A stretch of 24,000 nt of DNA from Bacillus sp. JCM 19034. GTDB taxonomy: Bacteria; Bacillota; Bacilli; Bacillales; Bacillaceae_D. The number at the start of each line of letters is the position of its first letter. Positions within the stretch are counted from its first letter, which is position 1. This document shows, one piece after another, positions 2,984 to 22,169 of the stretch. Below the pieces are notes generated by a model that had not been told where the DNA came from, searched no databases, and saw only the letters and a list, made by a program, of their open reading frames with translations. Position numbers and translations under genes: made by a program. The DNA lies in assembly GCF_001310635.1 (NCBI RefSeq), contig NZ_BAXR01000003.1:22261-46260 (forward strand), read 5' to 3'.

Positions 2984-4162
2984 TTGAAGCGAATATTGTT
3001 CATTATACTAGTTGCTCTTTTTTATTTAGTAGTACATCCAATCGTTACGTTCGCTGAAGAAGAAGGAATACAGGAAGAAGGGTTTATTGAACAGCAAGTT
3101 GACAATTTACAATTAGATGAGATAGGGGAATACTGGGAAGAATTATCACGCGATTACGGCGGATTTCTCCCAGAAAGCCAAAAAGGATCACTCATGGAGT
3201 TTATAAGAGGGGACAAGCAATTTTCAATAAAAGAATGGGGAATTGGCTTCATTAAATATTTTCTCCATGAACTACTTGTAAATGGGAAATTGCTAGGATC
3301 GCTCATTCTTTTGACCGTTTTTTGTATGATTCTTCAATCACTGCAAAATGCATTTGAACAACAAACAGTCAGTAAGGTTGCTTATGCCATGACGTATATG
3401 GTGTTAATGATTATTGCCTTAAATAGTTTTCGTGTGGCCATAACGTATGCAACAGAAGCGGTTAATTCGATGATTCATTTTATGATTGCCTTACTTCCAC
3501 TTATGCTGGCGATGATGGCGGCGATTGGAAATATTACAACAGCTGCTCTTTTTCACCCGTTAATCATTTTCCTTGTGAATATAAGCGGTTTGTTAATTCA
3601 AAAAATCGTTTTACCGTTATTGTTTCTATCAGCGGTTTTAAGCATAGTTAGTACCCTTACAAACCATTACAAAGTGTCGAAGCTCGCAACCTTTCTAAGG
3701 AATGTAGCTGTTGGGGCTTTAGGAATATTCTTAACCGTATTTCTTGGTGTTATTTCCGTACAAGGTGCAGCAACAGCGGTTACAGACGGTGTTACAGTTA
3801 GAACTGCGAAGTTTTTAGCTGGAAACCTCGTACCAGTTGTAGGAAGAATGTTCACTGATGCAGCAGATACGGTCATGAGTGCTTCACTATTGCTAAAAAA
3901 TACGGTCGGGTTAGCGGGACTTGCGATTTTGTTAATGTTATGTGCTTTTCCAGCACTAAAAGTCCTTTCACTTGCGATTATTTTTAATTTATCAGCGGCT
4001 ATTTTACAACCGCTCGGAGGTGGACCAATTATTGAATGCTTATCGATCATTGGTAAAGCGGTAATATTTGTATTTGCGGCTTTAGCTGTTGTTTGTTTGA
4101 TGTTCTTTTTAGCTATTACAATCATGATCGCAGCTGGTAATGTGTCATTAATGGTTAGGTGA
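2984..4162 (+). CDS. spoIIIAE: stage III sporulation protein AE (polytopic membrane protein)
   Basis: This is ORF 2969-4162, with TTG 2984 preferred (GAGGTG 2971-2976, 7-nt spacing). Long collinear matches to B. subtilis SpoIIIAE include LPESQKGSLMEFI, GKLLGSLILLTVFC, VSKVAYAMTYMVL, VQGAATAVTDGVTVRTAKF and ILQPLGGGPII. Confidence 0.9.
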   Translation: MKRILFIILVALFYLVVHPIVTFAEEEGIQEEGFIEQQVDNLQLDEIGEYWEELSRDYGGFLPESQKGSLMEFIRGDKQFSIKEWGIGFIKYFLHELLVNGKLLGSLILLTVFCMILQSLQNAFEQQTVSKVAYAMTYMVLMIIALNSFRVAITYATEAVNSMIHFMIALLPLMLAMMAAIGNITTAALFHPLIIFLVNISGLLIQKIVLPLLFLSAVLSIVSTLTNHYKVSKLATFLRNVAVGALGIFLTVFLGVISVQGAATAVTDGVTVRTAKFLAGNLVPVVGRMFTDAADTVMSASLLLKNTVGLAGLAILLMLCAFPALKVLSLAIIFNLSAAILQPLGGGPIIECLSIIGKAVIFVFAALAVVCLMFFLAITIMIAAGNVSLMVR

Positions 4163-4174
4163 GGAGGTAAACAT

Positions 4175-4831
4175 GTGGGAAGCTTAACAGGATGGTTGAC
4201 GACGATAATTTTAATTATTTTGTTAGCAACAATTTTAGAGATGATCCTTCCAAATTCACATATGCAACGATATGTGAAGATGGTCGTTGGACTGTTATTA
4301 TTAGTTGCTATGTTGCAGCCGTTGTTGTCGATTTTTACCGAGGATGTGGATGAATGGCTAGTTTCATTATCGATTCAAACGGATGAAACAGAAAAAATCG
4401 TGCATGAAGCAATAAATTTGCAAAAAAAAGAGATAGAGTTGGGACAACGTGCATATATTTCTGAACAGATGGCTGTCCAATTAGAGAATCAAGTAAAAGA
4501 AGGATTAAAAGAAGGATATGATTTGGAATTGGCAAGTGTTGAGGTTGAACTAGTATGGAAAGAAGGTCTTGAAACGATGCACGATGCGATGGAGGCTTTA
4601 GAGAGTATTCATACGTTTGTTTCAAAGGAATTAGAAGAACAGCAAGAGACAGAGGTAGAGATCGTTCAACCTGTTCATATTCAAGTCACACAGACAAATC
4701 ATAAAGAAGACGTAGAAGAAAAAGAGGAAGAGGATCCATTGGAAGAAGTTCAACAATTCCTTGCTCATAATTGGGATGTGCCAGAAGAAAAGATTATTGT
4801 TGCTTGGGAAGGGGGGAAACAAGCAAAGTGA
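4175..4831 (+). CDS. spoIIIAF: stage III sporulation protein AF
   Basis: GTG 4175 lies 7 nt after GAGGAGG (4161-4167). The N-terminus LTGWLTTIILIILLATILEMILPNSHMQRYVKMVVGLLLLVAML matches B. subtilis SpoIIIAF. The C-terminal half is acidic. Confidence 0.85.
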   Translation: MGSLTGWLTTIILIILLATILEMILPNSHMQRYVKMVVGLLLLVAMLQPLLSIFTEDVDEWLVSLSIQTDETEKIVHEAINLQKKEIELGQRAYISEQMAVQLENQVKEGLKEGYDLELASVEVELVWKEGLETMHDAMEALESIHTFVSKELEEQQETEVEIVQPVHIQVTQTNHKEDVEEKEEEDPLEEVQQFLAHNWDVPEEKIIVAWEGGKQAK

Positions 4832-5533: not shown

Positions 5534-6145
5534 ATGCTTAGTCTTATTATTGTCCTATCAGTCTATTATGTTATTCCGTCAGATCCATCGCAAAACGATT
5601 TTGCTTATTCCGATGAGGATCTAGACACGGCCCCAGAAAGTGAAGCAAATGAAACTGATGGTGAAAATATAGAAGAAAGCGAAATTGAAAATAATGATGC
5701 TAATGCTGTTTTAGGTAATATCGCGGATGAACTTGATTTAAATTTTGAAGAAGGAGAATATGGGGAAATATCAACGATTTCATCCAATGAAACGTTTACG
5801 ACGATCCGCATGGAAATGCAAGCAAACCGTGACCGCCTAAAAGAAGAATATACGAAAATTCGGGCATCTGAAGAAGCAACTGCTGAAGAAAAGGCAGAAG
5901 CTCATCAGTTAGAGGCAGATTTGCACCAACTTCAAAATGATGAAGTTGTTTTGGAGCAATTGATTATTGCCAAAGGGTTTGATGATGCACTAGTGTTAGC
6001 AGATCAGGAGCAAGTTCGAGTGCTCGTTCAAGCAGAAGAGCTCACGAGAGAACAGGCAAATGAACTATTACAATTAACTATTTCACAGCTAAGCCTTAAC
6101 TTAGATGAAACAAGTGTTGCTGTTGGACATACAGGTGGCCAATAA
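5534..6145 (+). CDS. spoIIIAH: stage III sporulation protein AH (N-terminal codons displaced by a frameshift)
   Basis: MLSLIIVLSVYYVI matches the SpoIIIAH TM anchor, and an acidic linker and C-terminal domain follow. Upstream, ATG 5499 (SD AAGGAGG 5484-5490) opens a 10-codon frame-0 ORF. With one more A in the A6 run at 5507-5512 it would read MVLKKQTVWLLTMLSL, identical to the B. subtilis N-terminus LKKQTVWLLTMLSL. Confidence 0.8.
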   Translation: MLSLIIVLSVYYVIPSDPSQNDFAYSDEDLDTAPESEANETDGENIEESEIENNDANAVLGNIADELDLNFEEGEYGEISTISSNETFTTIRMEMQANRDRLKEEYTKIRASEEATAEEKAEAHQLEADLHQLQNDEVVLEQLIIAKGFDDALVLADQEQVRVLVQAEELTREQANELLQLTISQLSLNLDETSVAVGHTGGQ

Positions 6146-8769: not shown

Positions 8770-9168
8770 ATGAACGAAAACAATGGTTTAGAGTTGGAAG
8801 AGCAAAAATCAGAGCTTGGGAAAGTAGAAATTTCTCCAGAAGTTATTGAAGTGATTGCGGGGATTGCTGCCTCAGAAGTTGATGGTGTGGCGACAATGCG
8901 CGGGAATTTTGCTACAGATGTTGCCGAGAAGCTTGGACGAAAGAACCACGGAAAAGGGGTTAAAGTCGAGCTTGAGGAAGATGGTATTATTATTGATGTA
9001 TCAGTAGTGATAACTTACGGGGTAAGCGTTCCTAATGTAGCTAACTTGATTCAATCGAACATTAAGCAAGCATTACAAACGATGACTGCAATTGACGTTC
9101 AAGCAATAAATGTTCACGTTGTTGGCGTTCAATTTGAGACCATTGAACAAAATCCAGAGGAAGTGTAA
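8770..9168 (+). CDS. yqhY: Asp23/Gls24 family envelope stress protein (YqhY-like)
   Basis: The 132-aa product contains ISPEVIEVIAGIAASEVDGVA, typical of Asp23 family proteins. Its position after accC matches B. subtilis yqhY. Confidence 0.85.
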   Translation: MNENNGLELEEQKSELGKVEISPEVIEVIAGIAASEVDGVATMRGNFATDVAEKLGRKNHGKGVKVELEEDGIIIDVSVVITYGVSVPNVANLIQSNIKQALQTMTAIDVQAINVHVVGVQFETIEQNPEEV

Positions 9169-9178
9169 TCATAGAGTT

Positions 9179-9216
9179 GGAGACAGCCTTGGGGGAACCT
9201 TAGGCTGTCTTCTTTT
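9179..9216 (+). terminator. rho-independent terminator after yqhY
   Basis: AGACAGCCT (9181-9189) pairs with AGGCTGTCT (9202-9210), followed by TCTTTT. Confidence 0.75.
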
Positions 9217-9590
9217 ATCAGTTGGTCACTCTGTGAGTACATTTTAGTTCCTTAATGCCGGGAGTTTTCCTTCCAAATGACTTAGGGGAATAAAATAAAA
9301 AAAGTACAGAATATTAAAGGAGGAGAAATGAAAAGCCTGAAATGAAGTTAATATATTTTACTATTCAATATTTGGTAGGTGTGTTAGTGAAAAATAATCA
9401 ACGATCCAACTAATGTCTTACTATAAGCAAATTAGTGATTATAAACATTACCTTGAGAATTACTGGTCTCCTAAAATGCATCGGACCAATAAACAAATTA
9501 GTCAAGATACTTTTAGTAAGGGAATACTTTTTTACGATTAACTGAAATAATGCTTTTATAAATGTTAATGCACGTAAAAGGCGTTGTTCT

Positions 9591-9618
9591 TTGAAAAGAA
9601 AACATGGTATGCTATCAA
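9591..9618 (+). promoter_or_regulatory. putative sigma-A promoter for the nusB-folD-xseAB-ispA unit
   Basis: TTGAAA (9591-9596), a 16-nt spacer, then TGcTATCAA (9610-9618). Confidence 0.3.
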
Positions 9619-9657
9619 CATAACAAATGCAAGTTAACGGTAAAAGGAGTCAAACGA

Positions 9658-12512: not shown

Positions 12513-13393
12513 AGGAGCTTACTACCTTTTTAAAGTGCAGTAAACAACTTATAGAAAAACGACTTCCCGAGCATATAAATGCGATACAGGCACCTGAACA
12601 ATTAAAAGAAGCAATGCTATATTCTTTAAATGCAGGAGGGAAGAGAATTCGTCCTGCATTTGTATTTGCAACTTTACAAAGCTTTGGCGTTTCAATGGAG
12701 AAAGGTCTTGATGTAGCTTGTGCATTGGAGATGATTCATACATATTCGCTTGTACATGATGATTTGCCTGCAATGGACGATGATGATTTGCGAAGAGGGA
12801 AACCTACAAATCATAAAGTGTTTGGTGAAGCATTGGCAATATTAGCTGGAGATGCATTGCTAACGTATAGCTTTGAGGTTATTGCTAATTTAGATGCAGC
12901 TGTTTCCACTACTCAGAAAGTAGAGCTAATTCGTGAAATTTCACAAGCTGCCGGCCCAGCAGGTATGGTTGGCGGTCAGGTAGCTGATATGGCAGGTGAG
13001 GATCAGCAACTTACATTAGATGAACTCATCTTTATCCATCAACATAAAACAGGTGATTTATTAACAGCATCTGTTATGTCTGGAGCCATTTTATCTGGAG
13101 CAAATGTAGATGAAATGAAGCAATTGCGGAACTTCTCCAGGGAGCTTGGGCTGATCTTCCAAATTAAAGATGATATTCTAGATGTTGAAGGTGATACGGT
13201 ATTAATTGGAAAGCCTGTTGGGAGTGATCAAAACAACAATAAAAGTACATATCCCAATTTACTAGGATTAGATGCAGCAAAACAAAAACTTTCTGAGCAT
13301 ATCAAGTTAGCAAAGGAATATATATACGATATCGAGATAGATTCTAAGCTGTTAGTGGATTTAACTGAATATGTAGCAAATCGTGACCACTAA
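12509..13393 (+). CDS. ispA: farnesyl diphosphate synthase (polyprenyl synthetase family)
   Basis: GTG 12509 overlaps the xseB stop (GTGA). The first Asp-rich motif is [18 protein letters not shown] and the second is FQIKDDILD. The C-terminus ANRDH matches B. subtilis YqiD/IspA. Confidence 0.9.
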
Positions 13394-13408
13394 GTCCACC
13401 TATTACCA

Positions 13409-13438
13409 TTGAGATTTTCATAGACAGCGTGATATAAT
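13409..13438 (+). promoter_or_regulatory. strong sigma-A-type promoter (extended -10) driving the OLE RNA region
   Basis: TTGAGA (13409-13414), an 18-nt spacer, then TGaTATAAT (13430-13438). The predicted start is near 13445. Confidence 0.55.
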
Positions 13439-13444
13439 GGTCTA

Positions 13445-14045
13445 ACACGAGAGTGGTGCAGTATTCTAGTCAGTCCTCCAATTTTGAAGGCGGGCCTAAA
13501 AATCCGCCAAAGGGCACATCGATGAAGCTCCTTGTTTTGGCTTGAGGCGCCAGCCTTGGGTTTAAGCTGGGAGAAAAGGTAAAAGGGCGATCCACAAAGG
13601 CATGTGGGCGTTGACCCTTTTACTGTGGAGGCCTAAATATCCGTTCAATATTATATTGAGTAAGGAATTTGGGTATGAACCTGTAAGGCAAGTAGGGACT
13701 TGTCTGCAGCGTAGCCTGCCTTGAGTGGAGAACGAGGGGATTATAGAACAAGAAATATTTTGATTGTCGGCCAACAATCAAATATTTTACCTATATGAAA
13801 TCGTCTCTGCAAAAGAGGATAAAAGATTGGCACGGGATTGCTGAGGAAAACTCCTAGACTGTTCGAACGACATTTAAAGAGGATTGCAGTGTAGACTAAG
13901 TGGTAATCCAGTCTGGCGACTGGCGACAGCGCCAATCTCAGTTTAAAGGGAAACCACCAGTGCGGCGACGCATTGGAACTGAGATGGGAAATCCTACTGG
14001 ACCTAAGCTACAGAGTTTACTCTTTAAATGACCACTCTCTTACAT
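13445..14045 (+). ncRNA. ole: OLE (ornate, large, extremophilic) RNA; boundaries approximate
   Basis: This ~600-nt stretch has no ORF with an SD. It is G+C-rich relative to other spacers here and lies between ispA and a 4-TM protein gene followed by dxs, which is the published OLE context. It contains many local helices: 13579-13587/13615-13623 (9 bp), 13592-13596/13603-13607, 13685-13690/13717-13722, 13760-13767/13774-13781 (8 bp) and 13935-13943/13977-13985 (9 bp). I could not run a covariance model. Confidence 0.75.
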
Positions 14046-14076
14046 AAAATCCCTTAAAAAGGTGACGACTAAATAA

Positions 14077-14685
14077 ATGAAACATATTCAAAAATCGATA
14101 CATTGGAGTATTTGGATTGCCGTTATCACATTGGTGCTAGCGGCTATTTTTTCAGTTATTTCAACGTTCATATTAAGCGGTGTAACGTGGGCTATTGGAA
14201 CTATTATTGTGTTTATGATTGTTGTTATAGGTGTCTTCTTTGATACAATAGGTGTAGCAGCTACGGCTGCAGATGAAAAACCATTTCATGCAATGGCATC
14301 TGAACGATTAAAAGGTGCGAAACAGGCTGTTCAAATAACACGGAATGCCGATCGTTTCGCTAATTTTTGTAACGATGTCATTGGAGATATTTCCGGTATT
14401 ATTAGTGGTACCGCATCTGCCTATGTAGTTCTTCAGATAGCTATGCGTATAGGATACGGAGATACATCTGTACAATACTTAGCGATTTCTGTATTATTTA
14501 CTAGTGTGGTGGCAGCACTTACAGTTGGTGGAAAGGCGATCGGAAAAACACTTGCTATACATTATTCGACGCCGATTATTTTCCAGGTTGGTAGATTATT
14601 ATATCTTTTAGAGGTAAGATTAAAGATTAAAGTATTCTCTACTAATAATGGGAAAAAGAAAAAAGATAAATTGACGCGAAAGTGA
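14077..14685 (+). CDS. oapA: OLE-associated protein A (OapA)-like integral membrane protein
   Basis: The 202-aa product has four hydrophobic segments (approximately residues 10-33, 38-62, 105-123, 135-152) and a lysine-rich tail [13 protein letters not shown]. It lies immediately downstream of the OLE-like region and upstream of dxs, as described for oapA. Confidence 0.7.
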
Positions 14686-14695
14686 GGGTTCCTTT

Positions 14696-16582
14696 ATGAA
14701 TCTAGAGGAATTTACAGACCCAAGCGAATTAAAGCATTATTCTAATGAACAGCTTAAGCAACTAGCGAATGAAATTAGACAATTTTTAATTGAAAAACTA
14801 TCCGTAACAGGTGGTCATTTAGGACCCAATTTAGGTGTAGTTGAATTAACACTTGTATTGCATCAGTTATTTGAAAGTCCAAAAGATAAATTTATTTGGG
14901 ATGTTGGGCATCAAGCGTATGTTCATAAAATTTTGACGGGAAGGGCAGGTCAATTTGACCAACTTCGTCAATATAAAGGTTTGTGTGGTTTTCCAAAGCG
15001 TAATGAGAGTGAGCATGATGTTTGGGAAACAGGTCATAGTTCTACATCGCTATCTGCAGCTATGGGAATGGCGACTGCTCGTGACTTAAAGGGTAGTGAT
15101 GAATCCGTTGTTGCTATTATTGGAGATGGTGCCCTAACGGGTGGTATGGCTCTAGAAGCATTAAATCATATTGGTCACGAGCAAACAGACATCATTGTTG
15201 TCCTCAATGATAATGAAATGTCGATTGCTCCTAATGTTGGTGCTCTTCATAATGTTCTTGGGCGTCTTCGTACGGCAGGGAAGTATAAAAAGGCGAAAGA
15301 GGAGCTAGAGCAATTAATTAAAAAAATACCGGCGTTTGGTGGTAAAATAGCTGCAACAGCAGAGCGTGTGAAGGATAGTTTAAAATATTTATTAGTATCA
15401 GGAATATTCTTTGAAGAATTAGGCTTTACGTATTTAGGTCCTGTTGATGGACATGATTTAGACGATTTGGCTGAAAATATGAAATACGCGAAAAAAACAA
15501 AGGGGCCAGTGCTGGTTCATGTACTTACGAAAAAAGGAAAAGGCTACAAGCCGGCTGAATTAGATGCAAAAGGGACTTGGCATGGGTTAGGTCCGTATAA
15601 AATGGAATCTGGTGAAGTTGTTAAAAAGCCAGGTCCACCTAGCTATAGTGGCGTTTTCGCTGAAACGTTGAAAAAGATTGCACGAGATGATAAGCGAATT
15701 GTCGCCTTGACAGCTGCAATGCCTGGTGGGACGAAATTGGATGTTTTTGCGAAGGAATTTCCAGATCGGATGTTTGATGTTGGAATTGCTGAGCAGCACG
15801 CAACAACGATGGCGGGCGGTTTAGCTACACAAGGGATGAAACCAGTCTTTGCTGTCTATTCAACGTTCCTGCAACGTGGGTATGATCAAGTTGTACATGA
15901 TATTTGCCGACAAAATTTAAACGTTATGTTTGCAATTGATCGTGCTGGTTTAGTAGGAGCAGATGGTGAAACGCATCAAGGCGTGTTTGATATAGCATTT
16001 TTACGTCATTTGCCGAATATGAGAATTTTAATGCCGAAAGATGAGAATGAACTTCAGCATATGATTTATACAGCAATACAATACGACGATGGACCGATTG
16101 CTGTTCGTTATCCGCGTGGAAATGGTTATGGCGTGAAAATGGACAAGCAACTTAAAAACGTGCCGATAGGTAAGTGGGAAGTTCTAAACGAAGGTTCAGA
16201 TGCTTGTATTTTGACATTTGGTACGATGATTCCTGTTGCGGAGGAAGCGATCAAAACGTTAGAAAAGCAAGGTGTATATGTTAAGTTAGTAAACGCTAAC
16301 TCCGTTAAACCGCTTGATGAAGCATTGTTACATGAAATAGCAAAGCAAAATATTCCTGTACTTACGATTGAAGAAGCAGCATTACAAGGTGGTTTTGGTA
16401 GTGCGGTGCTTGAGTTTTTCCAAGAAAATCAATATATGGTAACGATGAAGCGTATGGGAATTCCTGATGAATTTATTGAGCATGGTAGTGTAAAGGAACT
16501 ACTTGAAGAAGTAGGATTAACTTCAGCTAATGTAGTCGATCAGCTGGATACTTTATTGCCAAAGCGTAGACAAAGGGCGTAA
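14696..16582 (+). CDS. dxs: 1-deoxy-D-xylulose-5-phosphate synthase
   Basis: The 628-aa product contains [14 protein letters not shown], the ThDP motif [15 protein letters not shown] and [15 protein letters not shown]. It is collinear with B. subtilis Dxs. Confidence 0.97.
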
Positions 16583-21354: not shown

Positions 21355-22169
21355 GTGCAAAAGGTGAAAGTTTGTATTGCAGACGATAATCGAGAATTAG
21401 TTCATTTGTTAAATGAGTATATTTCAGCTCAGAGTGATATGGAAGTGATTGGAACAGCCTTTAATGGTCAAGAATGTGTTAGTTTAGTGGAAGATAAGGA
21501 GCCTGATGTTTTAATTTTAGATATTATTATGCCACATTTAGATGGTCTCGCTGTTTTAAAGCGATTAAATACATTAAAGCTAAAAAATAAACCAAATATT
21601 ATTATGTTAACCGCGTTTGGACAAGAGGACGTAACAAAAAAAGCTGTTGAATTAGGTGCGTCATATTACGTTTTAAAACCATTTGATATGGATGTGTTAA
21701 TTACAAATATTCGTGATATTGGTGGTCAAAATCAATCGTTTGTCCAACCTACTACATCTTCCAATTCGTCATCATTTATTTCATCAAAATCTGATGGTTT
21801 ACAATCAATGGTGGCTTGAATTTAGATGCGAGCATTACGAATATTATTCATGAAATCGGTGTACCAGCTCATATTAAAGGGTATATGTATTTAAGAGAAG
21901 CGATTACAATGGTTTACAATGATATTGAATTGCTTGGTTCGATTACGAAAGTATTATATCCAGATATCGCTAAAAAGTTTAATACAACTTCAAGTCGAGT
22001 TGAACGAGCTATTCGTCATGCGATTGAAGTTGCTTGGAGTAGAGGGAACATTGATTCCATATCGTCATTATTTGGGTATACGGTGAGTCATTCAAAAGCA
22101 AAGCCGACTAATTCTGAATTTATTGCAATGGTTGCAGATAAATTAAGAATTGAGAATAAAGTATCCTAA
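21355..22169 (+). pseudogene. spo0A: sporulation master regulator Spo0A, split by a -1 frameshift in the inter-domain linker
   Basis: GTG 21355 follows GAGGAGG (21342-21348). The receiver domain ([12 protein letters not shown]...[14 protein letters not shown]...[28 protein letters not shown]) runs in frame 1 to TGA 21817-21819. The DNA-binding domain ([22 protein letters not shown]...[19 protein letters not shown]...[15 protein letters not shown]) is in frame 0 up to 22169. The shift must lie within 21795-21816. B. subtilis Spo0A is one 267-aa chain. Confidence 0.9.

Follow-up and report, generated by a model that had tools for sequence, protein, structure and literature searches.

The stretch of DNA analyzed in this work (24 kb, referred to as the window) is from Bacillus sp. 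JCM 19034. Its genes are arranged in the order spoIIIAA-AG, accB, accC, an Asp23-like gene, nusB, folD, xseA, xseB, ispA, ole, oapA and dxs, followed by tlyA, argR, recN, spoIVB, spo0A and steA; within the window, spo0A is split by a frameshift. We take this arrangement to be that of Bacillus subtilis, except that ole-oapA has been inserted after ispA and before dxs. OLE RNA, the product of ole, is a large membrane-associated bacterial RNA that was described in 2006. The original prediction for this locus had named an OLE neighborhood consisting of folD, xseA, xseB, ispA, ole, oapA, dxs, tlyA and recN, and all of these genes are present in the expected order. The gene set from nusB to recN, together with sporulation genes, is the neighborhood reported for OLE (PMC12265935), and a catalogue of OLE RNAs covering all GTDB genomes has been published (PMC11332333).

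The spacer between ispA and oapA and its promoter

The gene ispA, encoding an FPP (farnesyl diphosphate) synthase (NCBIfam NF045485, 428 bits), ends at position 13393, and the next plus-strand ORF preceded by an SD sequence begins at 14077, leaving a spacer of 683 nt (13394-14076). Both coordinates had been given beforehand, together with the statement that ispA ends without a terminator, and they were borne out: an intrinsic-terminator-like site was found neither between ispA and the OLE RNA nor between the OLE RNA and oapA. The spacer has a G+C content of 44.1%, compared to 38.2% over the full 24 kb and only 30.5% at 9217-9590, an AT-rich spacer, in agreement with the claim that it is richer in G+C than other spacers; at 13512-13571, where about 34 G or C residues had been counted, a recount gave exactly 34. 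A search of the AT-rich spacer (9100-9650) against Rfam at a permissive threshold, together with an ORF listing, returned nothing. Folding of the OLE RNA yielded an MFE of -224.9 kcal/mol, as compared to -169.8 +/- 7.5 kcal/mol for dinucleotide shuffles (z = -7.3).

When the whole window was scanned against Rfam 15, the OLE model RF01071 matched positions 13437-14051 of the plus strand with a score of 533.2 bits (E = 5.6e-154; the gathering threshold is 50 bits). The match extends over model positions 1-616 of 616, is not truncated, and is the sole Rfam 15 match in the whole window; GOLLD, ROOL and the raiA motif were not detected in the window by the same scan. Canonical base pairs are formed by the window sequence at 148 of the 157 RF01071 consensus pairs with residues on both sides. 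The cmsearch check of the predicted ole gene thus came out clearly in its favor. Within the matched region, a conserved core of 591 nt (13449-14039) is bounded by the helix P1 described below.

A predicted promoter of the sigma-A type for ole is located at 13409-13438 on the plus strand. It consists of a -35 element, TTGAGA (13409-13414), an 18-nt spacer and an extended -10 element, TGaTATAAT (13430-13438), with TG at 13430-13431 and TATAAT at 13433-13438. This site agrees with the consensus at 11 of 12 positions and is the best one in the scanned region, just as a near-consensus extended -10 promoter had been anticipated at the start of the spacer. As the -10 box ends at 13438, transcription is predicted to start at about 13444-13446, approximately 4 nt before P1. 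Conservation of the promoter was evident from an alignment of ispA-oapA spacers (A2) that comprised the window, Halalkalibacter sp. APA_J-10, H. alkalisediminis and H. halodurans, the loci having been found via OapA (the OapA of H. akibai was not located on a contig): TTGAG of the -35 element and TGnTATAAT were kept in all four species, with the rest of the upstream spacer being 51-69% identical. For H. halodurans, the proximal ole promoter has been validated experimentally, with an effect on expression of more than 100-fold and an induction of about 7-fold by short-chain alcohols; the OLE RNA of that organism accumulates as one stable species of about 600 nt, its half-life being about 3 h, and RACE placed its 5' ends where P1 begins, adjacent to the start predicted for the proximal promoter (PMC3413148). 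As there is no terminator between OLE and oapA, oapA (and possibly dxs) should be transcribed by readthrough, starting either at the ole promoter or in the operon upstream, in which case a discrete OLE RNA would have to result from processing or from its own stability.

Structure of the OLE RNA and its conservation

Homologues were sampled by searching for the conserved segment GGAAANCNCCTAGACTGT in one genome per GTDB species, which yielded at least 120 loci. Among the 120 matches listed, 118 proved to be a full or partial OLE homologue in a sequence-only nhmmer search using the window RNA as the query; a Bathyarchaeota contig and a Sulfitobacter contig were chance pattern matches in which nhmmer found no OLE homologue. 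The window and 107 full-length homologues were then aligned by MAFFT (alignment A1, n = 108). More than 100 columns of A1 are invariant and more than 130 further columns are at least 90% conserved, and the window has the consensus base at all of these columns with the sole exception of a missing C in loop L5, which is considered below. This agrees with the OLE family, in which about a quarter of the positions are near-invariant.

The structure tested on this alignment comprised 157 pairs in 24 helices, OLE being known for an ornate fold of about 25 helices. With the Rfam structure, 84.9% of the cells in A1 were paired, compared to 40-45% when the 3' partners were slid by 1-3 columns. Compensatory changes, i.e., changes on both sides of a pair, were seen in 132 of the 157 pairs; the cells carrying such changes numbered 3244 versus 1196 +/- 39 after shuffling, and any observed measure was reached by none of the 500 shuffles. 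The covariation expected of an OLE structure was therefore present, the consensus helices being supported by an independent alignment of 108 sequences. It should be noted that the extent of pairing is underestimated with MAFFT where stems are variable (P7, P8 and distal P9); the low pairing of these stems, which are known to vary in length and are poorly aligned by MAFFT, is thus not evidence against the helices.

All seven helices listed in the original prediction are perfectly complementary in the window sequence, and five of them belong to the conserved structure: 13489-13493/13504-13508 is P4, 13579-13587/13615-13623 and 13592-13596/13603-13607 are P6 and P6.1, 13760-13767/13774-13781 is the tip of P9, and 13935-13943/13977-13985 is P14. 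The remaining two (13685-13690/13717-13722 and 13892-13897/13910-13915) fall outside it. They have no pair in common with the Rfam consensus, and in the 108 sequences they were 67% paired, with every measure falling short of the mean of the shuffles. They were rejected as fortuitous complementarities that use nucleotides of other, covarying helices. A candidate for the long-range P3 pairing, which would join the 5' region to the segment following P9, is CAGU/ACUG plus CUAG/CUAG (13459-13469 with 13854-13861); it is complementary, with all 16 of its positions invariant (n = 108), and its 3' strand is within the search pattern.

The two ends of the RNA are brought together by P1. Its 5' strand, GAGAGUGGU (13449-13457, plus strand), is the exact complement of its 3' strand, ACCACUCUC (14031-14039, plus strand), and 8 of the 9 pairs show compensatory changes, with 87.9% of the cells paired as compared to 30-41% after sliding. 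These positions are unpaired in the Rfam consensus structure; in other words, the RF01071 consensus structure omits a well-supported terminal helix. The region homologous to the 118 other OLE loci has its 5' limit at about 13449-13453 and its 3' limit at about 14036-14048. The covariation pattern and these limits indicate that P1 is the terminal helix marking the ends of the RNA. The OLE RNA is accordingly about 590 nt in length, occupies roughly 13445-14040 and is closed by P1, so that the spacer at 13394-14076 does contain OLE, as had been claimed, but the RNA does not fill the whole of it.

Several internal elements (all on the plus strand) can be related to known functions of OLE. The P4 hairpin (13489-13508), whose helix is 98.6% paired, carries an A-rich loop, CCUAAAAA, at 13495-13502 that is invariant in A1, and dimer bridge B1 is formed by the counterpart of this loop (L4) in clostridial OLE, as seen by cryo-EM (PMC12286853, PMC12265935). 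The J4a/5 segment, CGAUGAAG (13520-13527), would provide one strand of a predicted k-turn at P5, and the predicted partner strands are also present, namely a GGGAG-containing stretch after P5 and GUGGAG at 13625-13630. In H. halodurans, the k-turn at P5 is bound by OapC, and it is regarded as the site of OapC or bS21 (PMC9723947, PMC12286853); the sequence flanking P5 is the same in the window as in H. halodurans. The P5/P5.1 hairpin itself (13528-13573) is 95.9% paired, with compensatory changes at 15 pairs. It is followed by the P6/P6.1 hairpin (13578-13624), which has a conserved loop, AAGGCA (13597-13602), and in which helix 4 is 98.5% paired. The hairpins P7 (13632-13673) and P8 (13681-13709) align poorly across phyla and correspond to the known variable region of OLE (PMC12265935). 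Next is the long P9 arm (13718-13819), where helices 9-11 are 81-97% paired and the terminal loop contains the palindrome GGCC (13769-13772), which is nearly invariant in A1 and is known as the kissing loop of dimer bridge B3 (PMC12286853).

The 3' domain, i.e., the region of P10-P15 (13871-14030), shows many compensatory changes, with helices 19-24 being 88-99.8% paired. Within it, P13 (13914-13934) has a GCGA tetraloop at 13923-13926 and a bulged A at 13919, and P14.1 (13956-13977) has a GCGA loop at 13965-13968. Binding of OapB needs a GNRA loop together with a single-nucleotide bulge, and the GCGA loop of P14.1 corresponds to a weak second OapB site (PMC7936274). As read from the sequence, P13 carries both of the features needed. 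Taken together, all of the conserved sequence blocks are present, as are the features of the predicted protein sites.

We conclude that the spacer almost certainly carries the ole gene of an alkaliphilic member of the Bacillaceae, Bacillus sp. JCM 19034, which is close to Halalkalibacter; no finding speaks against this identification. The locus is a re-identification of a known RNA class, being a typical full-length copy and not a discovery, and in itself it adds nothing new to biology. Its value is that of a positive control, in which a known large non-coding RNA was recognized from sequence and gene context alone.

The downstream membrane protein OapA

The oapA gene (14077-14685, plus strand) begins 37 nt after P1 and encodes a membrane protein of 202 aa. 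It is preceded by a ribosome-binding site, AAAAGGUGA (14060-14068, plus strand), in which AAAAGGTG is invariant in the four species; AAAAGGUG, at the same site, is likewise invariant in the four-species A2 alignment. The protein is 71% identical over its full length to OapA of H. halodurans, so that the 4-TM protein gene predicted downstream of the spacer can be identified as the OapA orthologue. Among 4642 OapA homologues, it is 100% identical to a Bacillus sp. JCM 19034 protein and 85-93% identical to Halalkalibacter proteins. Halalkalibacter species are alkaliphiles, and OLE hosts are extremophilic or anaerobic members of the Bacillota. With these species as the closest relatives of Bacillus sp. 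JCM 19034, the earlier suggestion of an alkaliphilic, halophilic or thermophilic lineage holds, specifically for the first of these three.

An AlphaFold model of OapA, which is of low confidence (pLDDT 62.9, pTM 0.46), has helices at residues 2-33, 38-67, 81-125 and 132-182. The hydropathy profile gives clear support for residues 6-66, with room for two helices, and for residues 130-155, and the third helix is amphipathic. Hydropathy and the model thus agree on a helical membrane protein with, as predicted, about four spans. D100 and D104 of the DVIGD motif are invariant in 35 OapAs, and the C-terminal tail is rich in lysine, a basic cytoplasmic cluster being expected of an OapA.

Possible relatives of OapA were sought at the levels of both sequence and fold. 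The Pfam family CNNM (PF01595) gave 25.5 bits (E = 1.2e-5), which is below its cutoff of 28.4. No sequence-level link to CNNM/CorB structures was established, as a single-sequence search retrieved 7m1t at E = 0.66 only and a profile of 35 OapA sequences gave only chance matches to coronavirus spike when run against the PDB. In a fold search of about 350,000 PDB chains, the six best matches were CNNM/CorB/CorC membrane domains (MtCorB and TpCorC, with E values of 0.02-0.6), a ranking that serves as a hint only because of the low confidence of the model and the weak scores. With a sub-threshold Pfam score, no profile match in the PDB and weak fold scores, OapA would be a distant relative of CNNM and not a member of this family. 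The similarity, part of which depends on the model, seems weak but specific, and it is consistent with the literature without constituting independent proof.

Alternative readings, the OLE particle and known systems

Two other readings of the spacer can be weighed against a free-standing OLE RNA. One is that it codes for one or more small proteins, since ORFs of 25-71 codons are found on both strands. The two minus-strand ORFs that had been pointed out earlier (13562-13777, 71 aa, and 13741-13935, 64 aa) are both TTG-initiated, and neither has a match in Pfam; they had been described as devoid of a ribosome-binding site, and indeed the 64-aa ORF has no SD-like motif and the 71-aa ORF has only AGGT 11 nt upstream. 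No ORF in the spacer has a good SD sequence, the best being AGGT before two TTG-initiated minus-strand ORFs; moreover, the conservation takes the form of base-pair covariation without a codon-like pattern, and the variable stems freely gain and lose bases between species. Having neither a good SD sequence nor a family match, small-protein coding was rejected, and we give it practically no chance of being correct. According to the other reading, the structured region serves chiefly as a 5' leader (a riboswitch or an attenuator) that controls oapA-dxs in cis. The lack of a terminator before oapA, and hence co-transcription, is compatible with such a role, as is the position of the promoter upstream of both the RNA and oapA. 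However, OLE of H. halodurans accumulates as the long-lived species of about 600 nt mentioned above (PMC3413148), and as part of an RNP at the membrane it functions in trans (PMC12265935). In addition, P1 closes the RNA well upstream of the oapA ribosome-binding site, which is neither overlapped nor sequestered by the conserved structure. A leader function is thus extremely improbable, even if slightly less so than protein coding.

The remaining question concerns loop L5 of the OLE RNA, which reads GCCA (13549-13552) in the window, as compared to GCCCA in all 107 other OLEs of A1 and in all three close relatives; that is, its run of C is one base shorter than in other OLEs. L5 is one of the loops involved in dimer bridge B2 (PMC12286853), and a loop one base short, if real, could weaken this bridge. 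If true, GCCA would be the only altered L5-L6-L7 dimer bridge among the more than 110 OLEs examined, and would provide a natural test of the need for this bridge in OLE function. Between the window and a second assembly of the strain (Logan, run DRR018043), there are four differences, all of them homopolymer-length indels, and one of these, at 13932, is in the P13 stem of OLE, where the window version keeps the helix intact. Most likely, the missing C is a homopolymer sequencing error, as the assemblies differ only by homopolymer indels and spo0A contains a frameshift. For the same reason, single-base anomalies in the JCM 19034 assemblies should not be over-interpreted. We therefore consider it rather unlikely that the shortening is genuine in this strain. 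A still stronger reading would be that the deletion is real and disables dimerization, and that this is a decaying or defective OLE copy whose RNA is non-functional or being lost. It could draw on the departure of L5 from an otherwise uniform sequence, on the role of this loop in bridge B2, on the agreement of both assemblies on CC in L5, and on the fact that rare defective ole genes are on record (PMC11332333). However, the reported defective OLEs are in genomes lacking oapA (PMC11332333), and the locus is otherwise intact: the match of 533 bits is full-length, 148 of 157 pairs are canonical, the promoter is conserved and oapA is undamaged. An undercalled run of C is also the simpler explanation, given the homopolymer indels (one of them inside OLE) and the spo0A frameshift. 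Loss of function is thus very unlikely, and we retain an intact, typical OLE RNA as the preferred reading.

By analogy to the systems studied so far, the OLE RNA of this strain would be abundant and long-lived, as in the H. halodurans experiments, and would dimerize through L4, L5/L6/L7 and the GGCC loop of P9, as in the clostridial cryo-EM structures. OapA would bring it to the cell membrane, where P3 might span the bilayer, OapB would bind the GNRA hairpin of P13, and either OapC or bS21 would bind the k-turn at P5; such a particle might aid tolerance of short-chain alcohols, cold, excess Mg2+ and poor carbon sources. This outline follows the published model of the OLE RNP (PMC12265935, PMC12286853, PMC7936274, PMC9723947), and among OLE-bearing species, oapB occurs in about 60% and oapC in about 45% (PMC11332333). 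As to the biochemistry, the reading that we favor, speculative in the literature too, is that OapA would be a stripped-down divalent-cation transporter domain of the CNNM/MpfA type, with the OLE RNA supplying the regulation or sensing for which the all-protein relatives have their CBS and CorC domains. OLE would then be a class of possibly membrane-spanning RNAs regulating a partner that resembles an Mg2+ transporter. The class is among the most intriguing of bacterial RNAs, and the established H. halodurans system is as tractable as the present one, or better.

The closest experimental model for RF01071 is the OLE of Halalkalibacterium (Bacillus) halodurans C-125, with which the window shares the same P1-P15 architecture and 81.5% identity in the core; for comparison, the identity in the core reaches 93.1% with Halalkalibacter sp. 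APA_J-10. The surroundings of the P5 k-turn, L4, the GGCC loop and the GCGA loop of P14.1 are identical in the window and in H. halodurans. The gene likewise lies between ispA and oapA-dxs in both, the ribosome-binding site of oapA is the same, and the promoter is conserved. Differences are seen in P13, where the window has a GCGA loop instead of GUGA and a bulged A instead of U, both of which are within the tolerance of OapB binding (PMC7936274). In addition, P7 is shorter in the window, the tail that separates OLE from oapA measures 37 nt versus about 60 nt in H. halodurans, and L5 is one C shorter, probably as an artifact.

The OLEs of Clostridium acetobutylicum and C. botulinum, known as cryo-EM dimers, belong to the same family, and their dimer-bridge elements (the A-rich L4, L5/L6/L7 and the palindromic GGCC loop of P9) are present in the window. 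However, these organisms belong to another class of Bacillota, and the variable stems of their OLEs are unlike those of the window in both length and sequence. To our knowledge, there is no structure of an OLE from the Bacillaceae. The MpfA/CorB/CorC (CNNM-family) Mg2+ transporters have been proposed as all-protein analogues, and the modeled OapA resembles their CNNM membrane domain weakly; unlike them, OapA has neither a CBS pair nor a CorC/HlyC domain, and transport by OapA is putative. Finally, GOLLD, ROOL and the raiA motif resemble OLE in being large, highly structured and abundant non-coding RNAs, although they are unrelated to it in sequence and structure. GOLLD and ROOL are homo-oligomers as well (PMC12286853), but this group differs from OLE in forming nanocages rather than a flat dimer and in having no dedicated membrane-protein partner, such as OLE has in OapA.

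Structure and base-level accuracy of the OLE RNA gene

The terminal helix of the OLE RNA, P1 (window positions 13449-13457 with 14031-14039), is left unpaired in the consensus structure of Rfam RF01071, and it is among the best-covarying helices in the alignment of 108 OLE sequences. In loop L5, which belongs to the dimer bridge B2, the window carries CC at positions 13550-13551, giving GCCA, as opposed to GCCCA elsewhere: CCC is present in all 107 other OLEs as well as in the three close relatives (3/3). Most likely, the short C run is a homopolymer undercall. A second assembly of the same strain (L001; Logan, run DRR018043) differs from the window solely by homopolymer-length indels, located at window positions 13148, 13932 and 15132-15133. 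These indels cause frameshifts in ispA and dxs and break the OLE helix P13 in L001, whereas the versions in the window are intact.

OLE homologues on records labelled as other phyla

Clear OLE homologues were also observed on a 14-kb MAG contig labelled Actinomycetota bacterium (L076, approximately 45-634) and on a 1.6-Mb contig labelled Varibaculum timonense MGYG-HGUT-02421 (L077, approximately 3793-4365). As OLE is otherwise known only from Bacillota, both records are probably mislabelled or contaminated.

Sporulation genes and the spacer upstream of nusB

Spo0A is the master regulator of sporulation. Two ORFs occupy the place of a single spo0A gene (21355-22169), the first (21355-21819) matching Spo0A model positions 1-146 and the second (21816-22169) positions 147-262, with the reading frame switching near 21806-21820. 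This split could be due either to a sequencing indel or to a genuine pseudogene. The spoIIIA operon is flanked by ORFs of 99 aa (581-880) and 203 aa (5534-6145), neither of which has an NCBIfam match; the latter probably corresponds to spoIIIAH because of its position.

A 435-nt AT-rich spacer (9169-9603, about 30% G+C) precedes nusB; it gave no Rfam match even at E <= 1, and a search for ORFs within it found none that were convincing. On its other side lies an Asp23-like ORF (8770-9168) with a sub-threshold match to AmaP; yqhY occupies this position in B. subtilis.
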